A stretch of 64,000 bases of DNA from a phage. Where the stretch lies: NCBI GenBank assembly GCA_025611195.1, contig GCA_025611195.1_4718.1. One strand, 5' to 3'. This document shows positions 37,685 through 63,984 of this stretch, in pieces. The notes below the pieces were generated by a model, which saw only the letters and a program-made list of their open reading frames with translations, ran no database searches and had not been told where the DNA came from. Within the stretch, counting starts at the first letter, position 1. Every line of letters begins with the position of its first letter. The position numbers and the translations under genes were made by a program.

Positions 37685-40591
37685 ATGAACGATATAAATA
37701 AAGGGCGCGTCGCCCTCGAACGTCAAATGAGCAATAATGACGTTGCGAAGGCACTCATGAACAAATTTGTCGCTCCTGCTCCGCAGTCACGTCTTTATAA
37801 TACACGTGATGCGGAAGGAGCGAGCGGTCGTTTCGGGTTAGTTGTTCCCGACCAAATGACGATGAACACGGTTACGCGTGCGACCGCGACAAACATCGAG
37901 GATAATAAAAACATTCTCGAGCTGTTCCCTGAACTTAAACGCGTGATGCAGATCTACGTTGCCGCGTTGACGAACCCTAACGATCTTAAGACGGTCGAGA
38001 TGTTTATCGATAGCGAAGATTTCCCCGGTAGGGTCGCAGAAATCGTTCAGCCGATGATCGATACCATCGACACGCATTTTAAGAATATCTATAAAATAAA
38101 GACGCTTATCCCTCGTATCATCGAAGACGTCTTCTTTATCAAGGGCAGTTATAACTTCGTTGTTCTGCCAGAAAGCACGCTCGACCGCGCTATTAACGGT
38201 AACGGTCAACTGAAACTTGAAGAATACGGATTTAGAGACAACCACTTTGCAAGTTGGGGGCTTTTAGGTAACGATAGTCGCAAACGTCACGAAAATCAAT
38301 TACCTTCGACGGTTTCGATGGAAGATTATTTCTCAGGCGTTAATGAAACCATACCGTACGATCCCGTTGTCCGTATAGACAGCATTAAGTTTACCAATAC
38401 CCTGCTTCGTGATAAGGACGGTAAATTCATTGAAGCGAAGATCGATATTCCGGATATGGTTACGGTTGTCGATAACCCGGATATCCTCCGTATGCCTATT
38501 TTGCATCAGCGTCGAGCAGCGACAGCGGTGCAGCGTGCGTTACGCGCGAACACATTAGGAGGTAGTGGTTTGGTAACGCTGTCGGGTGATCCAACCCAAA
38601 CCGCTAACCGACGCGAGCTAACGCAAGAGCAGGTTAACGAGATTTGGAATAAACTCAACATCCAACGCCACACTAAGGTATCTCCCGTTTACGCGTTGGC
38701 AACCCCAGATACACTCGATCGTCAAAGTGTTGGTCACCCCGGCGTGATGCATGTACCGCCTGAGGCATTAGAACCAGTACATGCGCCAGGTGATCCGGAG
38801 AACCATATCGGGTATTTAGTTCAGTTGGATGAGTTTGGTTATCCGGTGCGTTTGGTTGAAGATGCGGCGTATTACAAACAGTTGGAAGGTCGGTTGTCGA
38901 AGATCACCGCGGATATCGCAGGTACTTCAAGCAACGGCATGGCGAGCGAGATGATCGGCGCGGCCAAGAACATGGTCCAAGGTACGTCATGTAATCAAGT
39001 AGACATGTCGGCCTTCGTATCGTCGTACGAATCATTGATGCAGCGCTACATTGTTGAACGTATCGTCAACGGTTATCTTGGTAGTGCGGTGGAGATCGGT
39101 GCGACATCATCGTTTTACCTATCGATGCTTGCTCGCAGTCTCGCCCACAAGCAGACTCGTGTTTTGTTTATTCCTCGTGAGATGGTGACATACATCGCTT
39201 ATGAATACAACAAATACGGTATCGGTCGTTCACTGCTTGAAAGTACGAAGATGATCTCGTCGCAACGAGCCATGCTCATGGTTCAAGAACTGATGGCGAA
39301 AATCAAAAGTTCGTTGAACTATACGACGCTAAGCGTAATGCTTGAAGACACCGACAGAAACCCGGTCGATACCGTCGAACAGGCATTACATAGTTTCGCT
39401 CGCGTCTACCAGTCTGGTTTCCCGTTGGGTGAAACTAACCCAATGGATATCATCAACGCGTACGAACGAAGCTCGATTCGATTGAAGGTTGAGGGGAATA
39501 ACCCACGCTTCCCGAAATTGAATACAGATGTCAGCGTTGAGCAGCGTAACTATCAGTCTCCTGATAACGAATTGATGGATCGTTACCGCCGTGACCATTT
39601 CATGGGTTTGGGAGTTTCTCCAGAGATTATCGATACTTCCTACCAATCTGAATTCGCGGCTTCTGTGATTACCGCCAACGCGATGCAAGAGAAGCAGTTC
39701 ACGGTTTGTCGTGAGGTTATCACGAACGGCTTAACTGATCACATCAAGAAGTACACGGCTTACAGTCCTGTATTGTTGACGTCGCTACGAAACACGGTTC
39801 GTGCGAACATGTCTAAGCTCTCCCAAGCACAATTGAAACAGCTTTTTGGTAGCGATTTCGAAAACGGCGTTATTCGTAACGTTAATGCTTATCAGGAGAT
39901 CGACGACCAGTCAGCAACAATGGACCTGGATTATTCTAAACCGGAAGTTCAGGAAGTTATTGCCGATGCTTATGTATCCATGTTCTTAAACAGTCTGCAG
40001 GTGCGTTTACCGAACAGCAATGCTCGCCGCCTTGAAGATCAGGTACGTGAATATAATCAGTACAAGGAAGCGATTACAGCGCAACTTGATGATTATTTAA
40101 CCCCTGATTACGTCATGGGTCTGGGTGGGGTTGATGAAACAACACTGCAGATGATCCGCGCATGCATTATTGGTACCGCGATGCGTACGTGGGCAAAAGA
40201 GAACAACTTCAATCAGGAGCTGGCTGATCTCTTCAGTCTTGACGATAAGAAGAATGCCGTGCAAGATTGGAAACGTGCATCCATGGAGCATATTGAAATC
40301 ATGGGTAAATGCATGGGTGATTTTGCATTGTATATTCAGAATCTGACGAAGAAGATTGAAGAGAAGATGGGGGATCAAGCACAGGACGGCAGCGTTTCAT
40401 CTGATGGTTCTTGGTCGTCTGATTCAAGTAGTGATACCGGTTCTTCTGATGACTTTGGTGGTGATGATTTCGGGGATACCGATTTCGATACCGAAACGAT
40501 GGAGGAAACCTCAACAGAGGAGACAACCACGTCTGAGGATACGACTACCGACACAACGTCAGAAGACGAGACTTCAGGTGATATTGTCTAA
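37685..40591 (+). CDS. large hypothetical protein with acidic S/T/D/E-rich C-terminal tail
   Basis: 968-aa ORF, AAGGAG SD before ATG 37685; last ~70 aa are almost entirely S, T, D and E. Confidence 0.55.
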   Translation: MNDINKGRVALERQMSNNDVAKALMNKFVAPAPQSRLYNTRDAEGASGRFGLVVPDQMTMNTVTRATATNIEDNKNILELFPELKRVMQIYVAALTNPNDLKTVEMFIDSEDFPGRVAEIVQPMIDTIDTHFKNIYKIKTLIPRIIEDVFFIKGSYNFVVLPESTLDRAINGNGQLKLEEYGFRDNHFASWGLLGNDSRKRHENQLPSTVSMEDYFSGVNETIPYDPVVRIDSIKFTNTLLRDKDGKFIEAKIDIPDMVTVVDNPDILRMPILHQRRAATAVQRALRANTLGGSGLVTLSGDPTQTANRRELTQEQVNEIWNKLNIQRHTKVSPVYALATPDTLDRQSVGHPGVMHVPPEALEPVHAPGDPENHIGYLVQLDEFGYPVRLVEDAAYYKQLEGRLSKITADIAGTSSNGMASEMIGAAKNMVQGTSCNQVDMSAFVSSYESLMQRYIVERIVNGYLGSAVEIGATSSFYLSMLARSLAHKQTRVLFIPREMVTYIAYEYNKYGIGRSLLESTKMISSQRAMLMVQELMAKIKSSLNYTTLSVMLEDTDRNPVDTVEQALHSFARVYQSGFPLGETNPMDIINAYERSSIRLKVEGNNPRFPKLNTDVSVEQRNYQSPDNELMDRYRRDHFMGLGVSPEIIDTSYQSEFAASVITANAMQEKQFTVCREVITNGLTDHIKKYTAYSPVLLTSLRNTVRANMSKLSQAQLKQLFGSDFENGVIRNVNAYQEIDDQSATMDLDYSKPEVQEVIADAYVSMFLNSLQVRLPNSNARRLEDQVREYNQYKEAITAQLDDYLTPDYVMGLGGVDETTLQMIRACIIGTAMRTWAKENNFNQELADLFSLDDKKNAVQDWKRASMEHIEIMGKCMGDFALYIQNLTKKIEEKMGDQAQDGSVSSDGSWSSDSSSDTGSSDDFGGDDFGDTDFDTETMEETSTEETTTSEDTTTDTTSEDETSGDIV

Positions 40592-40622
40592 ACGGATGTA
40601 AAAAAAAATAACACATAGTTAA

Positions 40623-40657
40623 CCTTCTCCCCAACCCGATGAGGGAAGGGGAGAAGG
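40623..40657. terminator. conserved two-tier GC hairpin (family copy)
   Basis: CCTTCTCCCC/GGGGAGAAGG stem, loop AACCCGATGAGGGAA; A9 run at 40600..40608; between convergent genes. Confidence 0.45.
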
Positions 40658-40673
40658 GCTATGCGCTATTTAA

Positions 40674-40952
40674 TTATTTTCGAGAGGTTAACCACGATTC
40701 AATTGCGGTGAGGTTGCATTTCAGTTCACGCCAACTAGGGTGTGGTGGGATCACAGCACCTTTGTCGATTACGGTTAGCTGAACCTGGTACTTCTGTTGC
40801 ATACGCGCTACCGTATCGCTTACCGAGAGGAAAAGCTGGTAACGTTCGTACGCTGTCAGTTCGCGGTCCTGATAAACCGCGTAGGTGGCTAACGTAACTT
40901 CGCGTAAGTCCTTTGCGTCTACAGAGACGGTGATGAGTTTATATTGACTCAT
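40674..40952 (-). CDS. small hypothetical protein
   Basis: 92-aa ORF between hairpin element and the Q/P/Y-rich gene. Confidence 0.45.
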   Translation of the reverse strand: MSQYKLITVSVDAKDLREVTLATYAVYQDRELTAYERYQLFLSVSDTVARMQQKYQVQLTVIDKGAVIPPHPSWRELKCNLTAIESWLTSRK

Positions 40953-41014
40953 ACGGTTTCCTTATCGACTAGGGTATTGCAAACTACAATACCCGTCATC
41001 GGATGATAACTTAA

Positions 41015-43573
41015 TTACTGCTCTTCACGTTCCAACAGATACTCGGAAGCGGTAATACCGTTTACCGTACGTACTGCTTTCAGACGAGTATCATCACTCA
41101 GAATCACGGTAACAGACTGCAGACCTTTTACTTTGGTCTCGAAGGTCTTGAATACCTGATCCAGCATACGAGCAATGCTTGGGTTGGTTGCAGCCGATGC
41201 GTGAGTGTAACCATTCTGGTTCAGCTTCAGAATCTTGGCGTTGGTTGGTACACGAAGAACAACATGCGGACGCATTGCGAACACACTGTGGTTAAACCAG
41301 TAAGCATCGTTACTATCTTCGTCGGTGACGATGTCTGGATTAACACGCATGTCTTCGGTAGCCGCGTCTGCCAAACGACGTTCGATTTCGTCAGCATCCA
41401 GAGAGCCGTCCTTCTCCAGTTCTGCACGATACTCACTCATGGCAACCAGATGACGTTCACGATTCGCTGCAGATTTTTCGTGAGCGGCTTTCAGGTAGTC
41501 ATGCATGTTGTACAGTTCTGCTATGGAAAGACGAATGTTCCACTGACCTTCGCCGTCACGATTGCAGTAGAGACACTTCAGCATGTTGACCCAGGTGTAG
41601 TAGCAATTGGAGAACTCATCTTCAATGAACTTTTGATCCATTTTAAGATCGTGAATCAGCCAACCGGACAGTTCTCCGATATCATCAACGAAGCTAGAGA
41701 TGGTGGTTTCAGAGAAGTTCTTCGGTACGATACGTTTGATCAGCTTGTTAACGTCTTTGGTCATGCTATCGTTCAGGAAATGCCAAATACGCAGAGGGAT
41801 GACGTCACGATACTGTTGCATGATCTGACGATAAGCTTTGATATCGTCGCTACGACCTTTATCAATAGACAACGCGTCCAGGAATTCATGGATAGCATCC
41901 AGCTCTTTGTCGGTATAGGTTCCCAGATAGGAATTGACCGTGGCAAGGAATGCTAATGCGTCGTTTTGGTTGACGTCAGTGTTGGTCTGCTGAATGATCG
42001 CTACTGCAGCTTTGGTTTCAGCATCCTCAACGCTTGACGCTGCGATCGCGTCGGTAACAGTAAACAGTTTCATTTCGCGCTGTTCGCCGACAACGATCGG
42101 TTCACGTTGAATCGGTTTGTTAAGACTAACGCGAACAACTTCTGCTTGCGCGATACGATCCAGTTTTACCATTTCCTGCTCTGCCATACGACGAGCGGTT
42201 GGATCTGATTCAAGTTCGATGTATTCCACTTCTTCCTCCGTGAGGGATGTAATGTCAACAATGGTTTCATGAAGAATTCCGTTTTCGTCGATACGTGCTC
42301 GACGAGCGAAGTGTCTGAAGTCATACAACGTTGGCCAGCGACAATTCGGCGCGTAGTCTTTGGCCTTCAAACGCATCTGCATAAATTCTTCATGTTGAAC
42401 AACACGACCGTAACGCTTAGCATCTTCGGTCGCATCAATTGGATTAACGGTCTTTGTTACCGTAGCGGAACGAGCCGTACGAATGGGTTCCGGTTTAGTC
42501 TGCACAGGTTCAGGTTGAACGGATTTCTGTTGTCCGGCCTTAACATGCCATTCGGGTTCTTCGTACCGTTCAGCAAATTGCTCGGCTGCTGCAAAGATAT
42601 CATTGATGCCACCAATATCTCCTTCTGGGTTCGTCGAATATACCCGTGGTTGCGGTGCCTCATAACGCGGCGCTGCGGTAGCAGGTGCGTCATTAACGAT
42701 AGGATCGTCATCACCAACATCGTACAAACGGTTGAACGCACAATCCTTCGAATCGATATACGATGGAGCTTGTGGTTGGATAACCGTCGGTCGAGGCTGT
42801 GCGCCGTATCCCGGCATTGTTGGAGCCATACCACGCATAACTGCCGGGTTAGGTTGGTATTGTGGTTGTGGGTAGGTTCCACCATACGTGGGATATGCGG
42901 GCTGTTGCGGTTGACCGTACCCACCGCCAACCATCGCATTTGCTTGCGGCCCACGGTAAGTCATCCCCAGTTGCATTACCTGCTGCTTCAGACCACGGGA
43001 CTTCTGCGCTATTTGCGCTAGACTCCCACTTTTATTTAGCTGCGTGTACTTATTCGCGGCTTCCGGGTTAATGCGCGATAATTCAATCGCACGATAATAT
43101 TCCGGGTATTGATTGGCTTCAAAGAGCCAGGTTACGAGGTGATACAGCGCAACTGTGCTCACAGCAGCAGAGACGATCTGGTCGTTGGACGCATTCTGCG
43201 GCATCGGGTTGATGTAAGAGAATACGTTCCAACAACAGTCTTCAACAAGCGATTCCATCATCATATCGTTATTGGTGTAACGTGCGACGAACTCGGTTTG
43301 TATTTTATCCTGTTGGGCGAAGTCTTTCAGGACATTGAAGACGGCTTGACGGATTTTGACGATCGTCGCTTCTTGGGTGATGAAGTTATAGTTCTGCTGA
43401 TATGATGGTTGTTGGTACTGTGGTTGTTGATAGGTGTTATTCGGGTATGCGCCGTACGGTGGTTGCTGGTACTGTTGCTGGCGAACCTGCTCAGCCGCAT
43501 AATTAATCGTGCTCGCATAAGGGTTTTCGCTGTAGCCCATTTGCTGATACATGTTGTTACTGCCATTATACAT
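41015..43573 (-). CDS. large protein with Q/P/Y-rich low-complexity regions
   Basis: 852-aa ORF; N-terminus and a central segment are QQPxYG-type low complexity. Confidence 0.55.
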   Translation of the reverse strand: MYNGSNNMYQQMGYSENPYASTINYAAEQVRQQQYQQPPYGAYPNNTYQQPQYQQPSYQQNYNFITQEATIVKIRQAVFNVLKDFAQQDKIQTEFVARYTNNDMMMESLVEDCCWNVFSYINPMPQNASNDQIVSAAVSTVALYHLVTWLFEANQYPEYYRAIELSRINPEAANKYTQLNKSGSLAQIAQKSRGLKQQVMQLGMTYRGPQANAMVGGGYGQPQQPAYPTYGGTYPQPQYQPNPAVMRGMAPTMPGYGAQPRPTVIQPQAPSYIDSKDCAFNRLYDVGDDDPIVNDAPATAAPRYEAPQPRVYSTNPEGDIGGINDIFAAAEQFAERYEEPEWHVKAGQQKSVQPEPVQTKPEPIRTARSATVTKTVNPIDATEDAKRYGRVVQHEEFMQMRLKAKDYAPNCRWPTLYDFRHFARRARIDENGILHETIVDITSLTEEEVEYIELESDPTARRMAEQEMVKLDRIAQAEVVRVSLNKPIQREPIVVGEQREMKLFTVTDAIAASSVEDAETKAAVAIIQQTNTDVNQNDALAFLATVNSYLGTYTDKELDAIHEFLDALSIDKGRSDDIKAYRQIMQQYRDVIPLRIWHFLNDSMTKDVNKLIKRIVPKNFSETTISSFVDDIGELSGWLIHDLKMDQKFIEDEFSNCYYTWVNMLKCLYCNRDGEGQWNIRLSIAELYNMHDYLKAAHEKSAANRERHLVAMSEYRAELEKDGSLDADEIERRLADAATEDMRVNPDIVTDEDSNDAYWFNHSVFAMRPHVVLRVPTNAKILKLNQNGYTHASAATNPSIARMLDQVFKTFETKVKGLQSVTVILSDDTRLKAVRTVNGITASEYLLEREEQ

Positions 43574-43608
43574 TTCTTACGATCCTTTTTATTTTATTCG
43601 GTTATGTG

Positions 43609-45405: not shown

Positions 45406-45444
45406 TACTCACTCCTTTCAGAAAGTTGCTTAAGCAGATTAAAG

Positions 45445-47218: not shown

Positions 47219-49441
47219 TCAGTTAGTCTGAACCGGCAGCTTGATGTTTTCAGTGTAGACCTTACGCAGGTTCACAACGTTAATCAGACCCAGCAGCGGG
47301 CAGTTGTTAACGAAGCGGCAGCGAGGCTGAACCATGGTTTCTTTAGAAACCTGACCGTTACGGGTAACCTGAGCAACAGATACCAGTTCCGGTACATACA
47401 GGAACATACCGAAGGTCAGCGGATCCGGAGAACCCTGGATACCACGAGACAGGGTCACGAAGATCTTATCACGCAGCAGGACGTTCGGGTTATCTACAAC
47501 CACGAAGTTGAAGCTTACACCAACGGTACGGAAATCACCATCGGTCTGCAGGAACTGCGGGATGTAGTTGTCGGTTGCTACTACGCAACGCGGTTTCTCA
47601 TCAGCGTTGGAAGACAGCAGCTGCAGAGCTGGCTGATAACCAGACTCGGAGTACATGCGATATGCCATCTCACGAATCACGTTCATGATCGCAGCGGACA
47701 CTTCGGCACGACGTTCTGCAGTGGTGGTACCCTGAACAGATTTCGCCAGGTCCAGATTGATTTCTTCGAACCACGGACGGATCAGGTAACGACCGAAACC
47801 TTCGATCTGGATATCACCGAACTGACGGAAGCGAGAGGTCGCAACCGCTTTCAGTGCATCTTTGTAGCTGAACAGTTTCTCAACCATCAGGTTGTCGAAA
47901 CGTGCGTTAGCAGCTTGGATCAGAACGTCCAGGTCAGCAGCGTTTTCTTCCCAATCCAGCGGACGAGGAATAGAGAACGGAGCCAGCAGGCCGATTGCGT
48001 AACGTTCTTGCTTCATGTTGAAGTCAAGGTGTTTACCACGTTCACGACGGTTGCTGTTGTTACGGCGAATACGCAGTTCGTAACCAACCAGTTTGAAGCT
48101 CAGGTCGTCAGCCAGGTCTTTAAATTCTTGGCTCTTACGCGGCTGTTCGATGTTGTCCTGATCAACCAGGCGATACAGTTCAGCGTTAGCACCGTTAACA
48201 CGCAGACCTGCTTTCTCTACGTTGGAAGAACCGTAAACTTCGATAGCCAGCTGAGCAGCAGATTTCGCATCGATGATGTCCTGCAGCGCTTCAGCTTTCG
48301 CGCCTTTAACGTCAACGGTGTTCTCATCAACGAAGATGGAGTGGGTGTCGAACGCCAGGGTCATTTTGCGGAAGTCGCCTTCCAGGGATTTCTGGAAACC
48401 GTTGGTAATCAGACCGGATACGTCGAACGGAACGTAAGAGGTCTTGCTGTGCTTGGCTGATTTGATTTCCACCAGGATTTTGGTCAGCGTGATCTGAGCA
48501 TCCAGCGCGTCGGTGTTGTCGCTGTAACCGTTAGCCAGAATGCTATCGTCTTCAGCGATACCGATCATGTCGATCAGTTTATCAACAGCCAGGTAAGACG
48601 TTTTGTAAGTTACGCCTTTGATCTCGATGTCGCGCGGAGCAACGATAGTTTTGTCAACGAAGTACTGCGCGTTAGCATCGTCAGCACGATAGATCGGATG
48701 CAGATCGGTCACGTCGTTGGACAGAACGTCGTTGTACATGAACGCATCCAGCAGCGGACGACGTACCCAATCAGCCGGAGTACCGTCAGCGTTACGACGC
48801 AGGTGGTTGAACACCAGCGGACGACGGAAAGATACATCATAACCGATCTGGTTCGGAGCCAGAACGATGGTGTTGTACAGTTCGTTACCCATGCGGCTCA
48901 GACGAGAAGCCTTCACGTTGAACACAACGGAGTACGGCATCATGTCACGCAGTTCTTTCTGGTCGTAGGACAGCTGAACCAGTTCTTCAGATTCGCAACC
49001 GCAGGAATCAGCAGCCATCATGACGAAGTTAGAGCTGTCAACTTCACGGCCAGACGGAGTGGTGCTGATGTTCATGGAACGTGCTTGTTTAGCATATTCC
49101 ACCGGGTTGCCATGAGCCAGCATGATCAGTGCTGCTGCACGAGCCTGCTGTGCGTTCATGGTGAACAGCTGTTCTTCAATACGCTGCTTCTCTTCCGGAG
49201 TGGTGGTTTCGAAGCCCAGCATGGACAGAACCGGTTCTTCTGCTTTACGGATGTCGCTGCTGAAGCTCTTAACATCCATATCGTTAACCAGTTTGTCCAT
49301 GGATTTGAAATCAACCTTAGAAGCAGATTCCATAGACAGGAAGGTGTTCTCCAGACCTTTGTCTGCTGGTTTGCTACCATTAGCGGTCAGGAACTGGCGA
49401 GTGGCCGCGACCTGTTGGCTAAGAAGGGTTTTATCATTCAT
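47219..49441 (-). CDS. putative major capsid protein (jumbo-phage type)
   Basis: 740 aa, strongest host-optimal codon bias in the window, AAAGGA SD; size fits phiKZ-like capsid proteins; the assignment is inferred, not motif-proven. Confidence 0.6.
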   Translation of the reverse strand: MNDKTLLSQQVAATRQFLTANGSKPADKGLENTFLSMESASKVDFKSMDKLVNDMDVKSFSSDIRKAEEPVLSMLGFETTTPEEKQRIEEQLFTMNAQQARAAALIMLAHGNPVEYAKQARSMNISTTPSGREVDSSNFVMMAADSCGCESEELVQLSYDQKELRDMMPYSVVFNVKASRLSRMGNELYNTIVLAPNQIGYDVSFRRPLVFNHLRRNADGTPADWVRRPLLDAFMYNDVLSNDVTDLHPIYRADDANAQYFVDKTIVAPRDIEIKGVTYKTSYLAVDKLIDMIGIAEDDSILANGYSDNTDALDAQITLTKILVEIKSAKHSKTSYVPFDVSGLITNGFQKSLEGDFRKMTLAFDTHSIFVDENTVDVKGAKAEALQDIIDAKSAAQLAIEVYGSSNVEKAGLRVNGANAELYRLVDQDNIEQPRKSQEFKDLADDLSFKLVGYELRIRRNNSNRRERGKHLDFNMKQERYAIGLLAPFSIPRPLDWEENAADLDVLIQAANARFDNLMVEKLFSYKDALKAVATSRFRQFGDIQIEGFGRYLIRPWFEEINLDLAKSVQGTTTAERRAEVSAAIMNVIREMAYRMYSESGYQPALQLLSSNADEKPRCVVATDNYIPQFLQTDGDFRTVGVSFNFVVVDNPNVLLRDKIFVTLSRGIQGSPDPLTFGMFLYVPELVSVAQVTRNGQVSKETMVQPRCRFVNNCPLLGLINVVNLRKVYTENIKLPVQTN

Positions 49442-52739: not shown

Positions 52740-53312
52740 TTAGACGATGAGTGACCAGGTGGTAAGCACACCGCTTGCGAATTCGAGCTTAAGACGTTTA
52801 CCGATAAGTTGTTGTTGAATCATCTTTTCAGTGATACGTCGATCTTGCTGAACCGCTTTATCAAACGCTTCTTTCGCTTCGGCTTGGTAGAAGTTCGTTT
52901 CTTCGTTGTCGTCGATCTCTTCGAGAGCGTCATCGTCGATGTCAGCAAGTTTCACTCGACCGTTTTCATCAGGTTGTTCTGCAGGCTCATTGTCATAAGG
53001 CGTGTCTTTTGTTGGTGCGACACGATGATGCAACTCGACCTGTGTTAACATGATCTCCATCTCACCATCGATAGGGATGATTTCATCGGCGCAGCCGTTT
53101 TCGGTCAGCTCTCGACTTTCCAGTAATGTCGTGGTGACAGAGAACACCTCTTCAACAGGAACCTCATCATCGTCGATAGTGTTAACCGTATTGCTGGTAA
53201 CTTCGGCAACGACCATCAAATCGAATGCGTGAGGATCACCTGGCATTTTGATTCCTGGAAGTTTGTTGAGGTACCAAGGATCGAGAATCATGATTTCTGG
53301 ATTAAACATCAT
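52740..53312 (-). CDS. acidic hypothetical protein
   Basis: 190-aa D/E-rich ORF with GAAAGG upstream of ATG. Confidence 0.45.
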   Translation of the reverse strand: MMFNPEIMILDPWYLNKLPGIKMPGDPHAFDLMVVAEVTSNTVNTIDDDEVPVEEVFSVTTTLLESRELTENGCADEIIPIDGEMEIMLTQVELHHRVAPTKDTPYDNEPAEQPDENGRVKLADIDDDALEEIDDNEETNFYQAEAKEAFDKAVQQDRRITEKMIQQQLIGKRLKLEFASGVLTTWSLIV

Positions 53313-53383: not shown

Positions 53384-54286
53384 TTACTTAGCCTTTGAGT
53401 TATGCGGACTAACATGCTGTTGTACTCGTTGGATTGTATCGTAGTACGGGTTAGATTGGTTGAACATGTTGTTGTGTGGGGGATAGCCATATGGCGCATT
53501 TTGCCTTGTTGGTGAGAAACCTTGTTGAGAAGGACGGTTTGAATTAACCGCGAGTACGTAGTAAACCAAATTTTGACGGTCGAATGTTCCTTCGTTTTTG
53601 AAAGTGTCGGCGTAGGCTTTTACCGCTGGAGTGAGCCTATCACCATCGGCTGTAATAATTGTACCGTCTGGGTAAACTTCCCGAACGACGCACCATGTTC
53701 CGATGAGAACATCTTTAGGTGCTGTATTACCATATCCGGTTGTAACGGTAAGGTAAGTATCGAACCCTTCAGAACAACAAGGATGACGATAGATGGGTCC
53801 TGTCATTTCCGTTCTATCGGTATCGCTACATTGTTCTATTGAGAGCGATGATGTGTCGGTTTTGAAATTGTCAAATTCTTTCTTTAAGTCGATTACGGGT
53901 TCTTTCGTATAGTACTTCTTGATTGCTTTGACGTAAAGATCAGGAACGGTTGTCAGCAATCCGTTATACCTGATTCTCAGGTTTTCGAGTAATCCAAAGA
54001 TGCTCGCGCATGCCTGTTCGCGAGGTTTTGTAAGATAAGAGATCCCCTCAGGAACGCTGGGATCTTTGAGAAAGAAGATTGCGTTATTGTCGTTGTGCGA
54101 TGCGTTGAAGAAAACGATTGATTCGATATATACGGAGCATAGGCTGTCATTGGCGTCGTCAGATAACACCCAGATGCACTCATCGGTCGTCTTGTTTAAA
54201 AGTTCTGTTTTGTCGACCAAACGTTGTTTCATTGCGAGGAAATGTGCCTGTTGTTCAGCAGTTAATTCACGATAAATAGTGGTCAT
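53384..54286 (-). CDS. hypothetical protein, paralog of 54372..55145
   Basis: ORF 53384..54364 trimmed to ATG 54286 (AAGGAG upstream); shared segment YRHPCCSEGFDTYLTVTTGYG...WCVVREVYPDGTIIT vs YIHPECHTTYDRYLTITGG...WRMIREIYPDGRIVT. Confidence 0.5.
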   Translation of the reverse strand: MTTIYRELTAEQQAHFLAMKQRLVDKTELLNKTTDECIWVLSDDANDSLCSVYIESIVFFNASHNDNNAIFFLKDPSVPEGISYLTKPREQACASIFGLLENLRIRYNGLLTTVPDLYVKAIKKYYTKEPVIDLKKEFDNFKTDTSSLSIEQCSDTDRTEMTGPIYRHPCCSEGFDTYLTVTTGYGNTAPKDVLIGTWCVVREVYPDGTIITADGDRLTPAVKAYADTFKNEGTFDRQNLVYYVLAVNSNRPSQQGFSPTRQNAPYGYPPHNNMFNQSNPYYDTIQRVQQHVSPHNSKAK

Positions 54287-54371
54287 GTTGGGCTCCTTGA
54301 TTACGATAAGGATGATTGCGGTTTTGTGGGTTTGGTAGGGCCCTAAACAAAGGAACCCTACCAATATTAGG

Positions 54372-55145
54372 TTAATCAGGATCGGCGTAGAAATGGTGAG
54401 GATAGCCGGAGTACGATCCTGCGTTACCGGCTATGGATTCTTTCTGGGAATCGACGACGAGCGCATAGAACTGTCGGGAATTTGTTAGCGTTGAGAAATA
54501 AGCGGAAAGGACTTTTTCATTCAATGCATCACAAGGTAGGCAGGTGCGACCGCAAAACGTCACGATACGGCCGTCAGGATAGATCTCACGAATCATTCTC
54601 CACTCACCGATATCCACTGGTGATGGCGCTGCTACACCACCTGTTATCGTTAAGTAACGATCGTACGTGGTATGGCATTCAGGATGAATATAGATCGGCT
54701 TGTTCGTTTCGACAGGTTCCGAAGTATCTCGACGACTAAGAAGCTCAACGACTTCAAGATAAATCGTTGGTAGATCGCGGAGAATACCGGTGCTACGACG
54801 TTTCTTTGTGATTCGCGGACGAATCTCGTTGAGAGCGTATTCGAGCTTACGTTCAGCTTCGTACGCATCGAGTTTTATCAAGCGACCCGGTTCATCGGAA
54901 TGATCCTGAGTTACGTAAACGAAATACGTGTCGCCTTTTGCAGCGTGAAAGATTCGAGCGACCTTAAATGTTTCTACGGTACGATAACCAAGGCGCGATT
55001 GATTTTCCACAGGAGAAAATATCCAATGCCGTCCTTCGTCAGCCTCAACAATTTCGTTGAAACTATCTGTCTGTTCTGGGACCTGGTAGTCAGCCAGTAA
55101 TGTGTCGAGAGCATCATCAGCCAGTTTGATGTAAATATCTGTCAT
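54372..55145 (-). CDS. hypothetical protein, paralog of 53384..54286
   Basis: ATG 55145 with GAGGA upstream; preceded by the TATATTAC-type motif and a palindrome. Confidence 0.5.
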   Translation of the reverse strand: MTDIYIKLADDALDTLLADYQVPEQTDSFNEIVEADEGRHWIFSPVENQSRLGYRTVETFKVARIFHAAKGDTYFVYVTQDHSDEPGRLIKLDAYEAERKLEYALNEIRPRITKKRRSTGILRDLPTIYLEVVELLSRRDTSEPVETNKPIYIHPECHTTYDRYLTITGGVAAPSPVDIGEWRMIREIYPDGRIVTFCGRTCLPCDALNEKVLSAYFSTLTNSRQFYALVVDSQKESIAGNAGSYSGYPHHFYADPD

Positions 55146-55201
55146 GTTTGTATCCTCGGTTATTAAGAGAAATTTACAGTGATAACAGTAAGCGTTGTTA
55201 T

Positions 55202-55225: not shown

Positions 55226-55259
55226 TAAACTGGAGTAATGCGCTTAAGACAGCATAAAC

Positions 55260-55291
55260 CCCTCTCCCAACCCGTCAGGGAAGGGAGAGGG
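55260..55291 (-). terminator. conserved two-tier GC hairpin (family copy)
   Basis: CCCTCTCCC/GGGAGAGGG stem, loop AACCCGTCAGGGAA; immediately after stop of 55296..56663. Confidence 0.45.
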
Positions 55292-55295
55292 AATA

Positions 55296-56663: not shown

Positions 56664-56665
56664 GT

Positions 56666-57271: not shown

Positions 57272-58584
57272 GGCTCAATAGCTCCTGCTCGTAACAGCAT
57301 AATAACGAACGGTGTGAAATAATAACGGTCCAGCGGAGAAAGCAACGGTAATGCGTCAACCATCTGTTTCAGTGCTGGGTGACTGATCGCTTTCTCATCG
57401 ACCATATCACGCACCATACTCTCAATGATTGTCATTGGGGCTTGGTTGCGATAGAAAGCCTCTGTGAAAACATAGTACGGATCGTCTGCTACCGATGGAA
57501 ATAACGGAACGTCGTCATACTCCATCGATGTATGATTGGTCACCAATGGGTTTGTCGGCGGTGTGTTTTCAGGCACAGCCAACTCTTTACCTACGTCTTC
57601 ACCGAGCGACGTGGTCGCAGGCCACATACAGAATCGCGCCCCGCTAAAACGAATCCCACCTGCAGCTGGGTACTGATAGAAACGCTTTGTTGACAACAGT
57701 GTGAATTTCACCGTCAACCGCGCCTCGTCTTCCCGACGTCCGTCCATGACCCATTCAAAGACAGAAATCGCGTTCGCTTCCTGGCTATCATCTACATTAA
57801 GACGTCCGAAGTTCCATGAGGGTTTTCCTTCAAGCGACGACCATAATTTCGTAAACGCGTTAACACACCAGGGGTCGTAGGTTGCAGCATCTTGACCAGG
57901 AACAAGCAGCGTGTTTAATTCACGGCTGTAAAATTCGTGGTAATACGCGTGACAAAGTCCCAGCGCACGACGGAGATAATCATACTTACGATTGTATTTC
58001 TCCGTTGCCATTACGGGATGTTTTCCGTGCTTTAACTGGTCTTGGTCGTACAGTGTATCCTCAACGATTTTCGCTTCCAGTTCGATAAGCTGTTTTTCGT
58101 CAAGAATACGCTGGAAGGAAATATCGCATTCGTAAGCCGGTGCTAAGCTGATGTTCTTCGGTGTGATTCTGGTGATAGTGTACACCGCGATACGATGATC
58201 GAGACCGGAGATTAACAGCATGTTACCTAAAAGAGGAACCGATACTGCCGGAAGTATACACGTACCCTCGGATTGAAAACGTGCGGTACCGTTGTCGTAC
58301 GACGGCGTCAATGACGACATTAACTTGATAGGGTAATGTCTGATACGACGGTACTGTTGTTCGGCGATATCGCGGTTAGCTTGAAAACTGCTTTGTTCAT
58401 CATCACGACCGAGAATCTGTTCGTAATAATCACATTCTACGGAATAACCGGATGCGTAATTCACCAGTCCGATTTGACTATTGTATTGCTCATCCACCAC
58501 CGCAGAACGATAAACATCGTCGCGAGCCTTCGCAGGCTGTTGGGGGTTGATGATGGGTTTCGCGGGCTTCTTAGCGAGCGCCAT
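57268..58584 (-). CDS. putative virion protein
   Basis: 438-aa ORF overlapping both neighbours by a few nt. Confidence 0.55.
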   Translation of the reverse strand: MALAKKPAKPIINPQQPAKARDDVYRSAVVDEQYNSQIGLVNYASGYSVECDYYEQILGRDDEQSSFQANRDIAEQQYRRIRHYPIKLMSSLTPSYDNGTARFQSEGTCILPAVSVPLLGNMLLISGLDHRIAVYTITRITPKNISLAPAYECDISFQRILDEKQLIELEAKIVEDTLYDQDQLKHGKHPVMATEKYNRKYDYLRRALGLCHAYYHEFYSRELNTLLVPGQDAATYDPWCVNAFTKLWSSLEGKPSWNFGRLNVDDSQEANAISVFEWVMDGRREDEARLTVKFTLLSTKRFYQYPAAGGIRFSGARFCMWPATTSLGEDVGKELAVPENTPPTNPLVTNHTSMEYDDVPLFPSVADDPYYVFTEAFYRNQAPMTIIESMVRDMVDEKAISHPALKQMVDALPLLSPLDRYYFTPFVIMLLRAGAIEP

Positions 58585-60136
58585 AGCGTTTCACTCCTAC
58601 GATGGTACCGACAAGAATTCTCGGTACGAATAAACTACGATGTTTGAACCATGAAGCGGTTGTTGGGATACGTTTGATGGCTTCGATAAGCCCGATTAGC
58701 GTATAACATCCCCGGCTGTTCTTCTTAGGCCAGTACTTTTTATCTAAACCTAATACCGCAAACAGTTCATCCACCAGATTGGGATAACAACACAACGCTT
58801 CAAGCGTCTCAACCTGTAACTGACTTAAATCTAACAGTATCGCCAGACGAACGTGGTAATCACTCCGTAAGTCTAACTGATCTTTCGCTTCAAGATCACC
58901 AACGTCGGTTAATGTCCACGCGTCTCTTGCGTAGCGGTATTTACCCTTCCAAACCTCAAGGAAAAAAGGAGATTGGTAATGGCATTTTGACCATTCTGGG
59001 TACTCGCGGAACCACCGAACAAGATCGGGATGGAATTCACCTTCTTCGGCTAACGCGTCCAACGTCACCAACAGGTTAGGTTGTTCAGGATCGATAGCGA
59101 GTAGCGCGGTGAAAAGCGTGCTTGATGGAAGCTCGGTCTCCACGCTCGATGGTGGCAGCCATTCATCCAAATCGGGATACCGATACGCTTGAATCGATGC
59201 ACCCTGTTCCGGCAAGAACGAATCACGAAGAATGTCCTGATACTGCACCACCATACCACCACGACGTGCACGGGATTTATCACGCACCGAGAGGCTCGGT
59301 TTGTAAAGGTACTCTTCGGGGAGTATCTGTTGGTGTACTTGAACCGGATACCGTGCTACGATGTGTGTTGGTGTGTCGTACGTGTAACGGTAAGAGAATG
59401 TAGCGTTGTACGAAGAACTGTTCTCATTCTTCTCTGGCTTCGGAGCGTCAGTGAAATCAAATTGACCAGAGATCTCTTCTTGCATTTCCCTGATAACCAA
59501 TTTAACGCTCTTACCGTCACCTGCGACTGTCGTCATGGTGGTTGCACGGTTGTCGAACCCGTCTCTAAGGTATTCGCTGAACTTATCCTTGTAACCCGCT
59601 ATTGCTTCTCGGTGTGTGTGAATAACTTTTAACAGCATGAGAAACTGTGTAGGGATCGCATAGCTGTATTCAGCACTGAGAAACGCGGCAACATGCTGAC
59701 TTGTGAGCAAACGTTTCATGTCGTACCACCAACGTTCGGCGGTGACCTGATCCTCGAACCGTTTGGTGATCTGCATGGTCGCAACCATCGTACTGTAAAC
59801 AGGTACTAGCGATACGCCAAGGTTACGGTCTTCAAATACTGGAAGACTGTTTCGTTTGTAAACGGTATCGTACATGGACGCCTGTTCTTCAGGAACAACG
59901 TTAAGCTCGATTTGGATAAACCCGTCAGCAGGCCCTTTTACATCCTGATCAACAACTTGCGGCGGTTGCTCGTTCGCAGCGCTCATTTTAGCGTGAAGAG
60001 CTTCCCCTCGAAAAAGAATATTCTCGCGATTGTAATCCCACCCGCAAAGCTCGCTGATCTGCCGTAATACCGCGATTGCAACTGGACGTGTTACCGTCGC
60101 GTATACGTCATTGATTTTTCGATCAAGTTTAGGCAT
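58571..60136 (-). CDS. putative virion protein
   Basis: ORF 58571..60163 trimmed to ATG 60136 with GAGGA upstream, overlapping the upstream stop. Confidence 0.55.
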   Translation of the reverse strand: MPKLDRKINDVYATVTRPVAIAVLRQISELCGWDYNRENILFRGEALHAKMSAANEQPPQVVDQDVKGPADGFIQIELNVVPEEQASMYDTVYKRNSLPVFEDRNLGVSLVPVYSTMVATMQITKRFEDQVTAERWWYDMKRLLTSQHVAAFLSAEYSYAIPTQFLMLLKVIHTHREAIAGYKDKFSEYLRDGFDNRATTMTTVAGDGKSVKLVIREMQEEISGQFDFTDAPKPEKNENSSSYNATFSYRYTYDTPTHIVARYPVQVHQQILPEEYLYKPSLSVRDKSRARRGGMVVQYQDILRDSFLPEQGASIQAYRYPDLDEWLPPSSVETELPSSTLFTALLAIDPEQPNLLVTLDALAEEGEFHPDLVRWFREYPEWSKCHYQSPFFLEVWKGKYRYARDAWTLTDVGDLEAKDQLDLRSDYHVRLAILLDLSQLQVETLEALCCYPNLVDELFAVLGLDKKYWPKKNSRGCYTLIGLIEAIKRIPTTASWFKHRSLFVPRILVGTIVGVKRYGAR

Positions 60137-60512
60137 CGATGTCATCCTCGCTAATTTCACCATATCCTTGTTGTCGATATCCGGTATAATGAATCAGACT
60201 GCTCTGTAGAAGCTCTTTAACGAGCCCTAGACGCGTTTTATCTGCTTCATTGGACGTTTCCATTAATGTTTCTATTTCGTTGTTTAAAACAGCGTATAGC
60301 GCTTCTAACGGCAATCCTTGGATGATTGGTTTGCTGGTGCCTTCTGGCAATGCCGCAACAGGAATCTGCACGACGGTTTCATGCGCAGTATGCGGGTTAA
60401 TACGACAAATATACATACCTGGTACTGAATGTCGCGGGCACGCCGCTACCAAGCATGTCTGTTGTTGCGCACCGTTAAGTGCGAGTGGTAGAAATTTTGC
60501 TTCACGTCTCAT
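60129..60512 (-). CDS. small hypothetical protein
   Basis: 127-aa ORF. Confidence 0.45.
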   Translation of the reverse strand: MRREAKFLPLALNGAQQQTCLVAACPRHSVPGMYICRINPHTAHETVVQIPVAALPEGTSKPIIQGLPLEALYAVLNNEIETLMETSNEADKTRLGLVKELLQSSLIHYTGYRQQGYGEISEDDIDA

Positions 60513-60563
60513 CGCAGATTCCTGTTTGAAAGATAAGATATCACATGATGGTCGACAGCATAA

Positions 60564-60585
60564 AGCCCACCCCGAAGGGCGGGCT
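60564..60585 (-). terminator. hairpin with UUCG tetraloop (minus strand)
   Basis: Minus-strand AGCCCGCCC-TTCG-GGGTGGGCT followed by TTATGCTG, 16 nt after stop of the 1127-aa gene. Confidence 0.45.
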
Positions 60586-60600
60586 GTTTATGCGCACGGA

Positions 60601-63600
60601 TTACTTGTAGGCACCGCAGTGTGCTTTGATGAGGAAAAGCACCGCTTGCATCGGTTTATTGAACTGTTGCCATAACGTCAATGCCGGATGGAACAACCAA
60701 TCTTCCAGGCCAAGAACAATACCGTAGTTAACGACATTATTAACATCGTTCTCAACGTTGAGTTCGCTATCCAGGAATTTATCGATTGAACGCAGGGCCT
60801 GCATGGCGTTGTCAGCAATAAGCCACGCTTCATGCGCTTCACGAGCCGCACGGAGCAATGCTTCCAGTTCGCTGGTGCTGGCTACCGGTAACTCCTCACT
60901 GGTGAGGTCGTCAGAAACCGTAAACTGGCGATTGATACCGGTGTAGATCCACTGCATCAGTTTCGCCGCTTCCTCGTTCGGGTTGTTACGTGTTGTCGCA
61001 TAGGTCGCGCTCATCTTCACGATATGCGTTTCACCAAGATACGCTTTGGACCCAACGCCTTTACGATCGCTGTCTTTCCACGGCTGTACGGTAGCGACCA
61101 TGAGCTTATCCCATTTCTGAATAGGAATACGCTTCAGACCAACAACCGATCCGGCGGATGTTTCGGACTGGTTGCTCTTCCGCACTTCGCCGAGTTCACG
61201 ATCGATAGCAACGATTAATTCACGCGTCATGTTACCAAGCATTTTGATTTCACCCAACGCAGCGATAAGCTTCTTCACATCGGTAATCGGTTCACCACCG
61301 ATGGTAAGATGACGGATGAAACGTTTCAGAATAATCCGTTCTGCTGCTGGGTTACCGCGACGCGCTTTAGCCAACGCTTGCTGTGTTTCGGCGAACAGCT
61401 TATCCCATGGAGCCGTAGCGGCGGTATAGTAACGGTGGTTGGTTTCAATCCAGTTACCGATACGGTTGACCGCACTCTTAACGGTATCCATGAATCCTTC
61501 CATCGCAATTTCGGTAGCTTCGACGTTACCCTGGAAGTTATCAGGACCGATCTCGCGTGCCGCTACCAGAATACCTTCCACCGCACTCACCGCATGCCGA
61601 CCGATAGCCAGATTTCGCTGTGCTTCTTCAGCACGCTCAACGAATTCCACCACTGCAGGATCGTCAACGATTTCCGCCTCGACAACAACACGTGTACCCG
61701 CATCACCTTCCAATGTCTCGATAGTGACAACCGGATCGTTTTCACCAGCAACATCCTGGTACTCTTCCTGTTTGAGTTCGCCGTTATCGGCCGCTGCGAC
61801 AGCGGTGAGTATACGGACGGTAACATCACCGAGTTCTTTCGCAGCGAATCCGTAGACGGTGCATGCTGTTGTCGCAAAGTTCATCAGTGCGCGTGTGCGT
61901 TTAACGATGTAGCCAACGCCGTAGTCACTACCGTTCTTATCGAGGTCGCGGATTAACCGTTCAGCTGTCTCCTGAAGTTGTGTAGCTGCTTTCAGAAGGT
62001 CTTCGTTAAACAGTTTCGTTGACGCATCGATCAGCATATCAACGCTAACGTTAGACGGTACGGCATCATCCTGCTGTTTCATGGCGCTAAGTTCGTCGCG
62101 GAACTTACGGATACCGTCTAAAGCGGCGTCGGCACTATGTCCGAACGCGGCCACGCCAGACATTGTTGTTGCTGTCAGCATGTCCGTATCAGCGTTTGGA
62201 CTTTCGCCTTCTTTAAGATCCTTCAGCTGGTCGAAGAACTTACGGGATGCTTCAGCGATACGTTTGCTGTCTTTTACCGCGTTTACGATTTTATCGACGG
62301 ATTTAGCATCGTTCGCAAGCAGCGTATCGAGTTTGTTCCATTCGACGTTGACTTTCTTTTCATCCGAAGTATTACTCGGTGGAGGAAGCAGTTTCATCAC
62401 CGGTGCTGTGCGTTGTTCTTTGGTCAGCTTGTTGGCCTTCCCTTCGATTTTTTTCTTATTAACACCAAAGAGATTTTTCAAACGCGCCACGAGGGCTTTT
62501 AAGAACTTCGCGACCGCTTCGTAAACCGATTTCAGAATCTGTTTAAAGCGACCCGGCTGCTTTTCCCCGTCTTCCAGATTAAGATCGCTGTTCAGCGCGA
62601 CATCAAGCTGTTTGTACGATTCCATGATGTATTCGTCTTTGATTTCAGGACGAATCTCGAAGCTTTCCATCGGACCTTCAGCCGGACGGAATTCCATTTT
62701 CAGTTCGCCTTGCAGAGTAGGGTCGACAATGGCGATCGCTTCACCCTGACCATCAGCGTTAAAGCGTTCAGCGTAACGAGTACGACGAACAATAACACTC
62801 TTATCCCCATCAAGACGACGTACCACCATGGTGCCAGGAATGTACGGTTGTTCTGTTTCAATGACGGTAACATCTGTCTCACCTTCACCGAGAATAACCG
62901 ATGCGCGCTGTTCAACAACAGGAACATCTAATACACCACGGGCTTCCAGCTCTTGATGAATTTCGAACGACTCTTGTTTCAGATCTTTATCTTCTTCGTT
63001 TTCGTCGTCTTCATCGTCACCTTTGGTGTTTTCATCACCCTCGGTGGTTTTGGTGTCGGCAGCATCAGCATCGGCGTCTGCGTTGGTGGGTTCTTCGGAC
63101 GCAGGTTCGGCGGTGCCGTCCTCGGTAGGCGTTTCATCAGCGTTATCGACATCAACATCGCCTTGCAGTTCTGTTTCCTGAGCAACTGCTTCGGCTTTCT
63201 GCTCGCCGGTATTACCGTCATTAGCGTCGACAGCAGGTTGTTCGTCAGCGACGGTATCTTCAACCTTTTCTACTTTCTCTACGACACGTTTAATCACAGT
63301 GACTTTGATGGGTTCTTCCGTTGTTTTGGTTTCTGGTACCGCATCGGCTACCGCAGGTGCTGTTTCAACAACAGGTTCTGCTTCTTCCGGTTCGACGACA
63401 CTACCTTTAACACCCTCGGTAGTTTCCGCAGGTTGTGCTGCCTGTTCGATTTGTGTTGGGTTGGTTGGATCGATGGCGTTAGCCGCATCCTGAATCTTGT
63501 TCTTCAGGTTATCGCGGTCAGCGTTAACGGTCGGGTCATTGGTCACTTTCGGTGCCGGTGTTTCGGTCGGTGCGTTTGCCGGATACGGGTTCTTCGGCTC

Positions 63601-63984
63601 TTCACCAGGTGCGGTTGGTACCGCGATCAGAACGAACGGTTGAACATCGTTACCGTCTTCCATGGTCACGCCACCGTTGCTCGGTGTGAAACGAATTCGT
63701 AAACTACCATCGATAGGACGGGTCACAATAACAGCACGCACGACATCCTCACCGTTTTCATCCGTGCTACGAATCACACGAACGGCGTCATCAACAGTAG
63801 CCCCTTCCTCGAGCGTATCTGATTCGATCGTCGCTTCGATGCTGTCTGGCCGTGCCGCTGTAGGTAATGCGATCACTTGCTCTTCTTTATCGGTAGAAAG
63901 CGTTGCTTTGACTTCGATGGGTGTATCGCCGCTTTCCAGGTTAAGATGCGACTTACGCATCAGATCAGCTAACGATTTTTTCAT
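60601..63984 (-). CDS. giant acidic protein (possible head/internal protein)
   Basis: 1127-aa ORF with AGAGGA upstream; central ~200 aa are extremely E/D/T/P/A-rich. Confidence 0.55.
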   Translation of the reverse strand: MKKSLADLMRKSHLNLESGDTPIEVKATLSTDKEEQVIALPTAARPDSIEATIESDTLEEGATVDDAVRVIRSTDENGEDVVRAVIVTRPIDGSLRIRFTPSNGGVTMEDGNDVQPFVLIAVPTAPGEEPKNPYPANAPTETPAPKVTNDPTVNADRDNLKNKIQDAANAIDPTNPTQIEQAAQPAETTEGVKGSVVEPEEAEPVVETAPAVADAVPETKTTEEPIKVTVIKRVVEKVEKVEDTVADEQPAVDANDGNTGEQKAEAVAQETELQGDVDVDNADETPTEDGTAEPASEEPTNADADADAADTKTTEGDENTKGDDEDDENEEDKDLKQESFEIHQELEARGVLDVPVVEQRASVILGEGETDVTVIETEQPYIPGTMVVRRLDGDKSVIVRRTRYAERFNADGQGEAIAIVDPTLQGELKMEFRPAEGPMESFEIRPEIKDEYIMESYKQLDVALNSDLNLEDGEKQPGRFKQILKSVYEAVAKFLKALVARLKNLFGVNKKKIEGKANKLTKEQRTAPVMKLLPPPSNTSDEKKVNVEWNKLDTLLANDAKSVDKIVNAVKDSKRIAEASRKFFDQLKDLKEGESPNADTDMLTATTMSGVAAFGHSADAALDGIRKFRDELSAMKQQDDAVPSNVSVDMLIDASTKLFNEDLLKAATQLQETAERLIRDLDKNGSDYGVGYIVKRTRALMNFATTACTVYGFAAKELGDVTVRILTAVAAADNGELKQEEYQDVAGENDPVVTIETLEGDAGTRVVVEAEIVDDPAVVEFVERAEEAQRNLAIGRHAVSAVEGILVAAREIGPDNFQGNVEATEIAMEGFMDTVKSAVNRIGNWIETNHRYYTAATAPWDKLFAETQQALAKARRGNPAAERIILKRFIRHLTIGGEPITDVKKLIAALGEIKMLGNMTRELIVAIDRELGEVRKSNQSETSAGSVVGLKRIPIQKWDKLMVATVQPWKDSDRKGVGSKAYLGETHIVKMSATYATTRNNPNEEAAKLMQWIYTGINRQFTVSDDLTSEELPVASTSELEALLRAAREAHEAWLIADNAMQALRSIDKFLDSELNVENDVNNVVNYGIVLGLEDWLFHPALTLWQQFNKPMQAVLFLIKAHCGAYK

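Follow-up and report, generated by a model that had tools for sequence, protein, structure and literature searches.

This report describes two acidic protein segments encoded in a stretch of 64,000 nucleotides (nt) of phage DNA (contig GCA_025611195.1_4718.1 of the GenBank assembly GCA_025611195.1), which was analysed as a whole and is referred to as the window. The segments belong to the products of two large genes, one on the plus strand encoding a protein of 968 amino acids (aa) and one on the minus strand encoding a protein of 1127 aa, and both open reading frames (ORFs) were confirmed at the positions collected in Table 1. An annotation made earlier from the DNA letters alone (the original prediction) had noticed the two segments and had placed them, correctly, near the capsid gene. 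The DNA of the window is about 94% identical to that of Escherichia phage vB_EcoM_Goslar, and the two genes are collinear with Goslar gp036 and gp053; on this sequence evidence, the window derives from a nucleus-forming jumbo phage of the Chimalliviridae that resembles Goslar. One acidic segment sits in the portal protein and the other in a packaged head-internal protein, two separate and previously characterised virion proteins of such phages, and the identity and virion location of both can be regarded as practically certain.

It should be noted that both identities are already known from the work on Goslar, and that the finding is in this respect largely ordinary: as annotation, little changes, both proteins resolving to known Goslar virion proteins. 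What is added is modest, i.e. an acidic portal tail that is found throughout the lineage, two invariant motifs, an apparently retained N-terminal part and a variable helical cassette in the head-internal protein. These observations retain some value for the biology of chimalliviruses: what the abundant packaged proteins of the PF12699 type (phiKZ_IP, phiKZ-like internal head proteins) do is still described as a key unsolved question, and the tail, the motifs, the retained N-terminus and the cassette could help to explain the anchoring, processing and release of internal cargo.

Table 1. Position of the two genes, of their acidic and conserved segments, and of the capsid gene in the window.
Feature	Position	Strand	Basis or description
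Portal protein gene (968 aa), Goslar gp36 ortholog, phiKZ gp129 homolog	37685..40591	+	PDB, PHROG and nucleotide matches
Acidic S/T/D/E C-terminal tail of the portal, residues 895-968 (74 aa)	40367..40588	+	73% S/T/D/E, 0 K/R, net charge -24
Major capsid protein gene (context)	47219..49441	-	PHROG 3231; PDB 11bt / 36za_A0
Packaged head-internal protein gene (1127 aa), Goslar gp53 ortholog	60601..63984	-	93.9% nucleotide identity, synteny, Goslar virion mass spectrometry
Conserved all-helical C-terminal domain, residues 786-1127, putative PF12699-like fold	60604..61629	-	Foldseek (fold search only)
Allelic hypervariable helical cassette, residues 545-735	61780..62352	-	Three alleles; only confidently predicted part of the full-length model
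E/D/T/P/A-rich region, residues 125-345 (221 aa)	62950..63612	-	62% E/D/T/P/A, net charge -45
Hypervariable, charge-conserved acidic core, residues 276-335	62980..63159	-	27 D/E, 3 K/R, net charge -24
Invariant motif 2, VDANDGNTGE.KAE..A.ETEL.G, residues 252-275, holding the candidate site V-A-Q-E270	63160..63231	-	Two-clade alignment
Invariant motif 1, KNPYPANAPTE.PAP.VTN.PT, residues 131-152, directly after G-E-E129	63529..63594	-	Two-clade alignment

The 968-aa protein matched the Goslar portal end to end (PDB 11ed_J, 'Portal Protein gp36', residues 1-968, 2140 bits), and its residues 5-921 are also covered by a second Goslar virion entry, PDB 36za_o8. Significant matches were obtained, in addition, with the phiKZ portal gp129 (PDB 9xpe_M, E = 1e-75) and with PHROG 3004 (5.7e-161), and the gene shares 94.4% nucleotide identity with Goslar gp036. 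At the protein level, the identity to Goslar gp36 is about 98-99% (99% for the P0115 cluster, and 98.7% over residues 1-900 by tblastn to Goslar), and the two proteins are collinear over their full length, the acidic tail included, the differences being limited to a few substitutions and the loss of one residue in the tail. The similarity thus extends over the full length to a protein that was experimentally shown to form the portal dodecamer. By sequence, therefore, the 968-aa protein is the dodecameric portal, a fixed structural component, and not the head-internal or ejection protein for which it had been taken. In Goslar gp36, the wing (residues 5-519 and 643-777), the stem/clip (520-642) and the crown (778-923), which build a 12-fold ring at a single capsid vertex, have been delimited, and the cryo-electron microscopy (cryo-EM) model spans residues 5 to 923 (10.64898/2026.04.21.720040). 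Residues 924-968 (nt 40454-40588) are the part of the tail that lies outside this model.

The 1127-aa protein is the ortholog of Goslar gp53 (YP_009820738), with which it shares the length class and the order of modules, the differences being concentrated in insertions and deletions (indels) of the acidic core and in the helical cassette. Its closest relatives in the databases are 92-97% identical, while no sequence relative was found in the PDB. Goslar gp53 was detected in purified virions by liquid chromatography-tandem mass spectrometry (about 330 copies, 63.2% coverage, 132 peptides); the authors placed it in the PF12699 'inner body' family on the basis of InterPro/SeqHub annotation and AlphaFold3 (10.64898/2026.04.21.720040). 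Searches at the BLAST level and exhaustive HMMER searches delimited a family composed of a Goslar-like group (109 clusters at 79-97% identity) and one sister clade, whose members are 1089-1670 aa long and are about 30% identical to the 1127-aa protein over the last third. When the C-terminal domain and the motif-bearing region of gp53 were searched by tblastn against 50,697 phage records, only Goslar itself was matched.

The position of the gene proved decisive. The gene order is gp63-62-61-60-59-[58...54]-53-52-51-50 in Goslar, gp87-88-89-90-91-[92...96]-97-98-99 in phiKZ and gp290-294-[295...298]-299 in RAY, and PhiKZ_gp91 - PF12699 - x - x - PF12699 - large protein - small ORF - terminator - stopper on the contig of the sister clade. 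A large protein is therefore the last gene of the inner-body array in four lineages out of four (Goslar, phiKZ, RAY and the metagenomic sister clade), and the gene follows the gp87-91 homologs and precedes the tail terminator and stopper. On these grounds, the 1127-aa protein closes the array of inner-body/ejection paralogs and is its largest member. Its counterparts phiKZ gp97 (816 aa) and RAY gp299 (780 aa) occupy the same slot, being last and largest and preceding a small ORF, the tail terminator and the stopper, although gp53 shows no detectable sequence similarity to either of them and has an additional allelic helical cassette. The slot shared with phiKZ gp97, together with the presence of the ortholog in purified virions, bears out the head-internal location that had been proposed for the 1127-aa protein.

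Membership in PF12699 was also examined by profile and fold comparison. Pfam returned no match for either protein. The PF12699 model, whose gathering score is 27 bits, recovered the positive controls Goslar gp58 (82 bits), phiKZ gp93, gp94 and gp95 (192-253 bits) and RAY gp295, gp297, gp298 and gp299 (33-257 bits), while Goslar gp54 and gp57 scored about 21 bits and remained under the cut-off. Although they are listed as PF12699 in the literature, Goslar gp53, gp55 and gp56 and phiKZ gp97 are missed by the model, and their PF12699 labels therefore rest on structure prediction and synteny. Among PHROG families, the 1127-aa protein gave a weak match to phrog_12254, the family of phiKZ gp96 (E = 2.7e-4). 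The AlphaFold2 (AF2) model of residues 740-1127 is all-helical but weak, with a predicted local distance difference test score (pLDDT) of 47 and a predicted template modelling score of 0.48. When this model was compared with BFVD by Foldseek, almost all of the top 25 or so matches were phiKZ-like virion proteins of 380-620 aa, with a probability of about 1.0, TM-scores (template modelling scores) of 0.3-0.5 and E = 2e-4 to 1e-2 for this low-confidence query. They came from phages including RP31, RP12, RAY, Eowyn, PS119XW, Phabio, 201phi2-1, Psa21, Moabite and PhiPA3; one of them is a 456-aa protein of RAY, which has the length of gp297, a protein that passes the PF12699 threshold. The full-length model (pLDDT 39) had no match in BFVD at E <= 0.001. 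A PF12699-like fold of the predicted C-terminal domain is thus likely, but not proven.

The acidic segments themselves are real. When the 56 putative genes of the window were compared by their most acidic 60-aa segment, the two proteins under study ranked at the top (net charge -24 and -22), the median of the maximum net negative charge per 60 aa being 7.5, and neither value was matched in any of 5000 shuffles of the respective protein. The long E/D/T/P/A-rich segment that had been described as the centre of the 1127-aa protein does exist, and the share of these residues is 62% there vs 42% across the whole protein; however, it lies in the N-terminal third to half, rather than exactly in the centre. 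Its description as low-complexity also needs to be qualified, as it is not uniform: the two motifs listed in Table 1, which are invariant between clades that are only about 30% identical, lie inside it.

The acidic tail of the portal was compared with the tails of nine metagenomic homologs and of seven portals from cultured phages (RAY, PA7, RP12, an SPN3US-like Seoulvirus, EL, OBP and CR5), with identities reaching down to 24% for the former and to about 21-28% for the latter; the PA7 portal stands in for phiKZ gp129, to which it is 99.9% identical at the DNA level. An acidic, nearly K/R-free tail terminates all 16 phiKZ-like portals, whose last 60 residues contain 15-36 D/E and 0-3 K/R. These tails cannot be aligned by sequence across the 16 portals, so that composition is conserved and sequence is not. 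The C-terminus of T4 gp20, which is cited as a structural relative of the portal in the Goslar preprint and in the phiKZ 'structural atlas' (10.64898/2026.04.21.720040, PMC13250141), is only mildly acidic (16 D/E, 8 K/R), and the acidic tail is therefore not a generic property of portals. Neither of these two papers discusses the acidic tail of the portal (10.64898/2026.04.21.720040, PMC13250141).

The lack of sequence conservation among the portal tails would fit the idea that both acidic segments are functionless, i.e. neutrally drifting disordered linkers or tails that originate from slippage and compositional bias and are tolerated outside the folded domains. However, drift would not be expected to preserve a tail that is acidic and nearly free of K/R in portals as divergent as these, and that is absent in this form from T4 gp20.

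The last 45-75 residues or so of the portal form a K/R-free, intrinsically disordered tail. A precedent is offered by the T7 portal, whose last 42 residues are disordered and were proposed by the authors to become ordered on contact with core proteins (PMC6702177). In the portal of the window, the tail would extend from the crown into the capsid interior, and the dodecamer would thus surround the inner opening of the channel with 12 times about -17 to -24 charges. Such a brush might act electrostatically, keeping packaged DNA from sticking at the entrance of the channel, or might provide a docking site for basic surfaces of core and internal proteins during prohead assembly. We infer a role of the tail as electrostatic brush or docking element, which may repel DNA, dock internal proteins, or both, because of its lineage-wide acidic composition, of the disordered C-terminus of T7 and of a parallel with T4 gp67.

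The parallel with gp67, a component of the T4 prohead core, deserves some comment. The gp67 gene directly follows the portal gene 20, and the protein has at its end a D/E run with a net charge of -25 over 60 aa, an acidity comparable to that of both segments in the window. T4 has acidic internal peptides, and the parallel is an analogy; the D/E run is of low complexity, so homology is not demonstrable. The acidic run is carried by a separate protein, gp67, in T4, whose portal has no such tail, and a comparable run by the portal itself in phiKZ-like phages, which may reflect either functional analogy or fusion/fission.

In the 1127-aa protein, the acidic segment is part of an ordered succession of modules: a beta-rich N-terminal part, motif 1, a P/A/T/E linker, motif 2, the acidic core, a second beta-rich part, the allelic helical cassette and the conserved helical domain. 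Between about residues 171 and 333, no secondary structure is predicted in the full-length AF2 model; the pLDDT is lowest there (22-29), and the acidic centre is accordingly predicted to be disordered. Motifs 1 and 2 occur nowhere else among GenBank phages. The aligned acidic block (residues 271-335) varies from 50 to 70 aa in length across 108 Goslar-like homologs and is an indel hot-spot, with a gap fraction of up to 0.38; its 12 commonest variants nevertheless contain 24-30 D/E and 0-2 K/R. Judged from these alignments, the charge of the gp53 core is conserved, and its sequence and length are not.

The indel hot-spot at residues 271-330 is a further point that would be in keeping with neutral drift, and so is the lack of an acidic segment in RAY gp299. 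Tandem-repeat DNA was considered as a source of the indels and set aside: the D/E run is encoded by a weak array of 9 nt x 3.2, which might hint at slippage, but the DNA is barely repetitive. In addition, drift would hardly keep the number of charged residues within such narrow limits while the length changes, nor would it leave the two embedded motifs invariant at 30% overall identity. Taken together with the portal tails, these data make it quite unlikely that the segments are without function.

The helical cassette is the most variable part of the protein, with the highest entropy along the sequence. Across about 108 Goslar-like phages it falls into three discrete allele classes that are 29-51% identical, in proteins that are at least 86-93% identical elsewhere; its pLDDT in the full-length AF2 model is 56-87. 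In the sister clade, a helical module of about 290 aa is present in one, two or three tandem copies, in proteins of 1089, 1380 and 1668 aa, respectively. Such variation points to the swapping of modules, or to diversifying selection, in a packaged protein of high abundance.

According to the original prediction, acidic segments of this kind mark head-internal or ejection proteins that are processed by proteolysis in large myoviruses, with cleavage at S/A-x-E motifs. A possible explanation along these lines is that both segments are propeptides, or parts of processed head-internal proteins, that are cut at such sites and leave the capsid. In fact, phiKZ-like phages process the portal, the major capsid protein (MCP) and PF12699 paralogs at S/A/G-x-E (PMC10052503). 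In Goslar, the mature MCP is without its first 157 residues (the model begins at S158, just after ...G-C-E150|S-E-E153|LVQL), and the maturation protease must therefore be active in this phage.

As far as the portal is concerned, S-T-E and S-E-E sites are present in the Goslar tail and would be compatible with its removal. However, the 968-aa protein is a fixed structural component, and the propeptides of its relatives are N-terminal: SPN3US gp81 sheds an N-terminal propeptide of 254 aa, cut at A-x-E (PMC10052503), and the portals of phiKZ (gp129) and 201phi2-1 reportedly shed a long N-terminal propeptide too. The Goslar-type portal, in contrast, keeps its N-terminus, as the model begins at residue 5 and peptides 66-86 were detected. 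Portal maturation thus clearly differs within the lineage, the N-terminus being kept in the Goslar type and removed in SPN3US. No sign of cleavage of the portal tail was found. The peptide data of the Goslar study are given in its Table S4, of which the peptides beginning with A to ELK were covered (10.64898/2026.04.21.720040); among them there is no peptide of the tail, as would be expected because the terminal tryptic peptide is about 78 aa long and without K/R.

In the 1127-aa protein, six S/A/G-x-E sites (E129, E270, E748, E825, E1031 and E1052) are invariant in both clades, and the sites G-x-E129 and A-x-E270 are each kept in 15 sequences out of 15. Three of the six are candidate cleavage sites at the borders of modules, namely G-E-E129|PKNPYP, V-A-Q-E270|TELQG and A-G-E748|NDPVVT. 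The second is located at the start of the acidic core and agrees with the cleavage logo of SPN3US gp245 in having V at P4 and A at P3 (PMC10052503). Removal of the acidic core as a propeptide would be consistent with the flanking positions of the conserved A-x-E270 and of S-F-E341. However, the peptides of Goslar gp53 tell against it. Those covering residues 84-96 and 202-220, with respective areas of 11,000 and 79,000, are as intense as the C-terminal ones (541-287,000), unlike the removed propeptide of the MCP, for which only modified peptides were found, with areas of 1,260-2,160, about 2-3% of the mean for MCP peptides. In addition, the 63.2% coverage of gp53 exceeds the 57% that is the maximum attainable from residues 481-1125 alone. 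The N-terminal part of gp53, before the acidic centre, therefore appears to stay in virions, and the normal intensity of its peptides argues against a simple N-terminal propeptide that is expelled. Considering also that S/A/G-x-E sites are not enriched in the protein (see below), it seems unlikely that the two segments are propeptides that leave the capsid, and processing of either of them is not established.

The general rule behind the original prediction holds for the family of the 1127-aa protein, but does not apply to the portal. Its positional counterpart phiKZ gp97 has a net charge of -151 and an acidic, E/D/T/V/A/P-rich region, and it is reported to be packaged, to undergo proteolysis during packaging and to leave the head with the DNA on ejection, after which it stays with the phage nucleus (10.1101/2022.09.17.508391, 10.1101/2024.03.24.586471). 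The acidic region makes up the N-terminal 460 residues or so in gp97, and follows the beta-rich N-terminal module in gp53; the other inner-body paralogs have only moderately acidic N-termini. RAY gp299 has been described in the literature as an injected internal head protein.

These precedents, along with those of phiKZ gp93 and gp162, outline a mechanism for gp53. Both phiKZ proteins are cut by gp175; beta-strand augmentation holds their N-terminal fragments on the inside of the capsid wall, and the helix-rich domains pass to the inner body or are ejected (PMC11297242). In gp53, a capsid-associated part at the N-terminus and a helical part that serves as cargo would be separated by the disordered acidic region, a charged spacer whose embedded motifs might be recognition motifs. 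After cleavage, which the prohead protease would probably carry out at the conserved sites E129, E270 and E748 at the module borders, the head would retain the N-terminal fragment, as in the case of gp93 and gp162, and the helical part would leave together with the DNA on ejection. Retention of the N-terminal part of gp53 fits this precedent. It should be noted, however, that gp53 is 2.5 times larger than gp93 or gp162 and has a long acidic spacer, that its cleavage is a candidate drawn by analogy with them, and that no density of the Goslar capsid has been assigned to gp53. We regard this mechanism, in which gp53 is cleaved but retained, as possible rather than probable. The whole explanation, i.e. 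a portal with an acidic tail and a packaged gp53 ortholog with an acidic spacer, appears moderately probable.

Several results weigh against this explanation. PF12699 was not matched by the 1127-aa protein at E <= 10, nor by Goslar gp53 at E <= 1, and comparison of the gp53 family with the phiKZ and Goslar PF12699 paralogs by local profile search (hmmsearch) and hhalign remained at noise level. Both AF2 models are of low confidence, and the fold evidence is correspondingly soft. An exhaustive phmmer search with residues 480-1127 against 1.84 billion representatives returned only three clusters, from the Goslar-like group and the sister clade. The acidic segment is not universal in the positional counterparts, RAY gp299 being devoid of a strongly acidic one. 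With respect to cleavage, the search for S/A-x-E motifs that had been recommended gave no support: 24 S/A/G-x-E sites were observed in the 1127-aa protein vs 24.3 expected from composition, and there was no enrichment in the acidic or N-terminal region either. No semi-tryptic gp53 peptides diagnostic of cleavage were found among those beginning with A to ELK, most of the diagnostic ones starting with letters after ELK or being too long and acidic for detection, and the retained N-terminal peptides fit an uncleaved gp53 equally well. As to the portal, the present results bear on the presence and composition of the tail, and not directly on its function.

A different function of the gp53 acidic region, exerted after ejection, was also considered. 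In or at the early infection vesicle, the polyanionic region could mimic DNA or serve as a decoy, and so shield the incoming genome or titrate DNA-binding defence proteins of the host; the neighbouring hypervariable cassette would be the outcome of an arms race in which the host senses ejected proteins. The acidic counterpart phiKZ gp97 is indeed ejected and stays with the phage DNA and nucleus; moreover, the Juk defence responds to phage factors that are ejected and co-localises with inner-body proteins, and the divergence of the cassette alleles at residues 545-735 inside near-identical proteins would be in line with such a conflict. The N-terminal part also seems to be retained in virions. 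However, only gp58, gp60 and gp61 have been shown to be injected in Goslar (10.64898/2026.04.21.720040), the N-terminal parts of phiKZ gp93 and gp162 remain on the capsid wall, and no similarity to known DNA mimics was found, no test aimed at one being possible. On balance, a decoy function appears very unlikely.

The same ideas can be combined with those on the portal tail. Proteins of the gp53 type would then be ejected, fast-evolving proteins at the host interface, equipped with a DNA-like decoy or shield, and the portal tail would anchor the internal cargo. Within this combination, the swappable cassette may be under diversifying selection from Juk- or Avs-type sensors of ejected proteins, and the portal tail may be functionally analogous to T4 gp67 in organising cargo at the portal. 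We consider this joint explanation to be quite improbable.

Two further possibilities regarding the architecture of the 1127-aa protein were examined and dropped. One was that the beta-rich segments at residues 55-130, 360-450 and 740-790 are repeats of each other that end in M-E-[S/D], and the other that the C-terminal domain is a duplicate of the cassette; in both cases the hhalign probability was below 1%.

Some other features of the window may be mentioned. At positions 53384-55145 on the minus strand, about 1.8 kb containing two ORFs (326 and 257 aa) represents an insertion or replacement between the gp046 and gp048 homologs, where Goslar has only the 189-nt gp047; the two ORFs had no match in Pfam or PHROG and no other match in GenBank phages. 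The 852-aa homolog of Goslar gp038 (41015-43573, minus strand), for which no PHROG family was found, gave a sub-threshold match to Cas9_C_2 at residues 730-791 (18.5 vs 27 bits), which is probably noise. Finally, the 190-aa homolog of Goslar gp046 (52740-53312, minus strand) contains the third most acidic segment in the window, around residue 76, with 20 D/E and a net charge of -16 over 60 aa.

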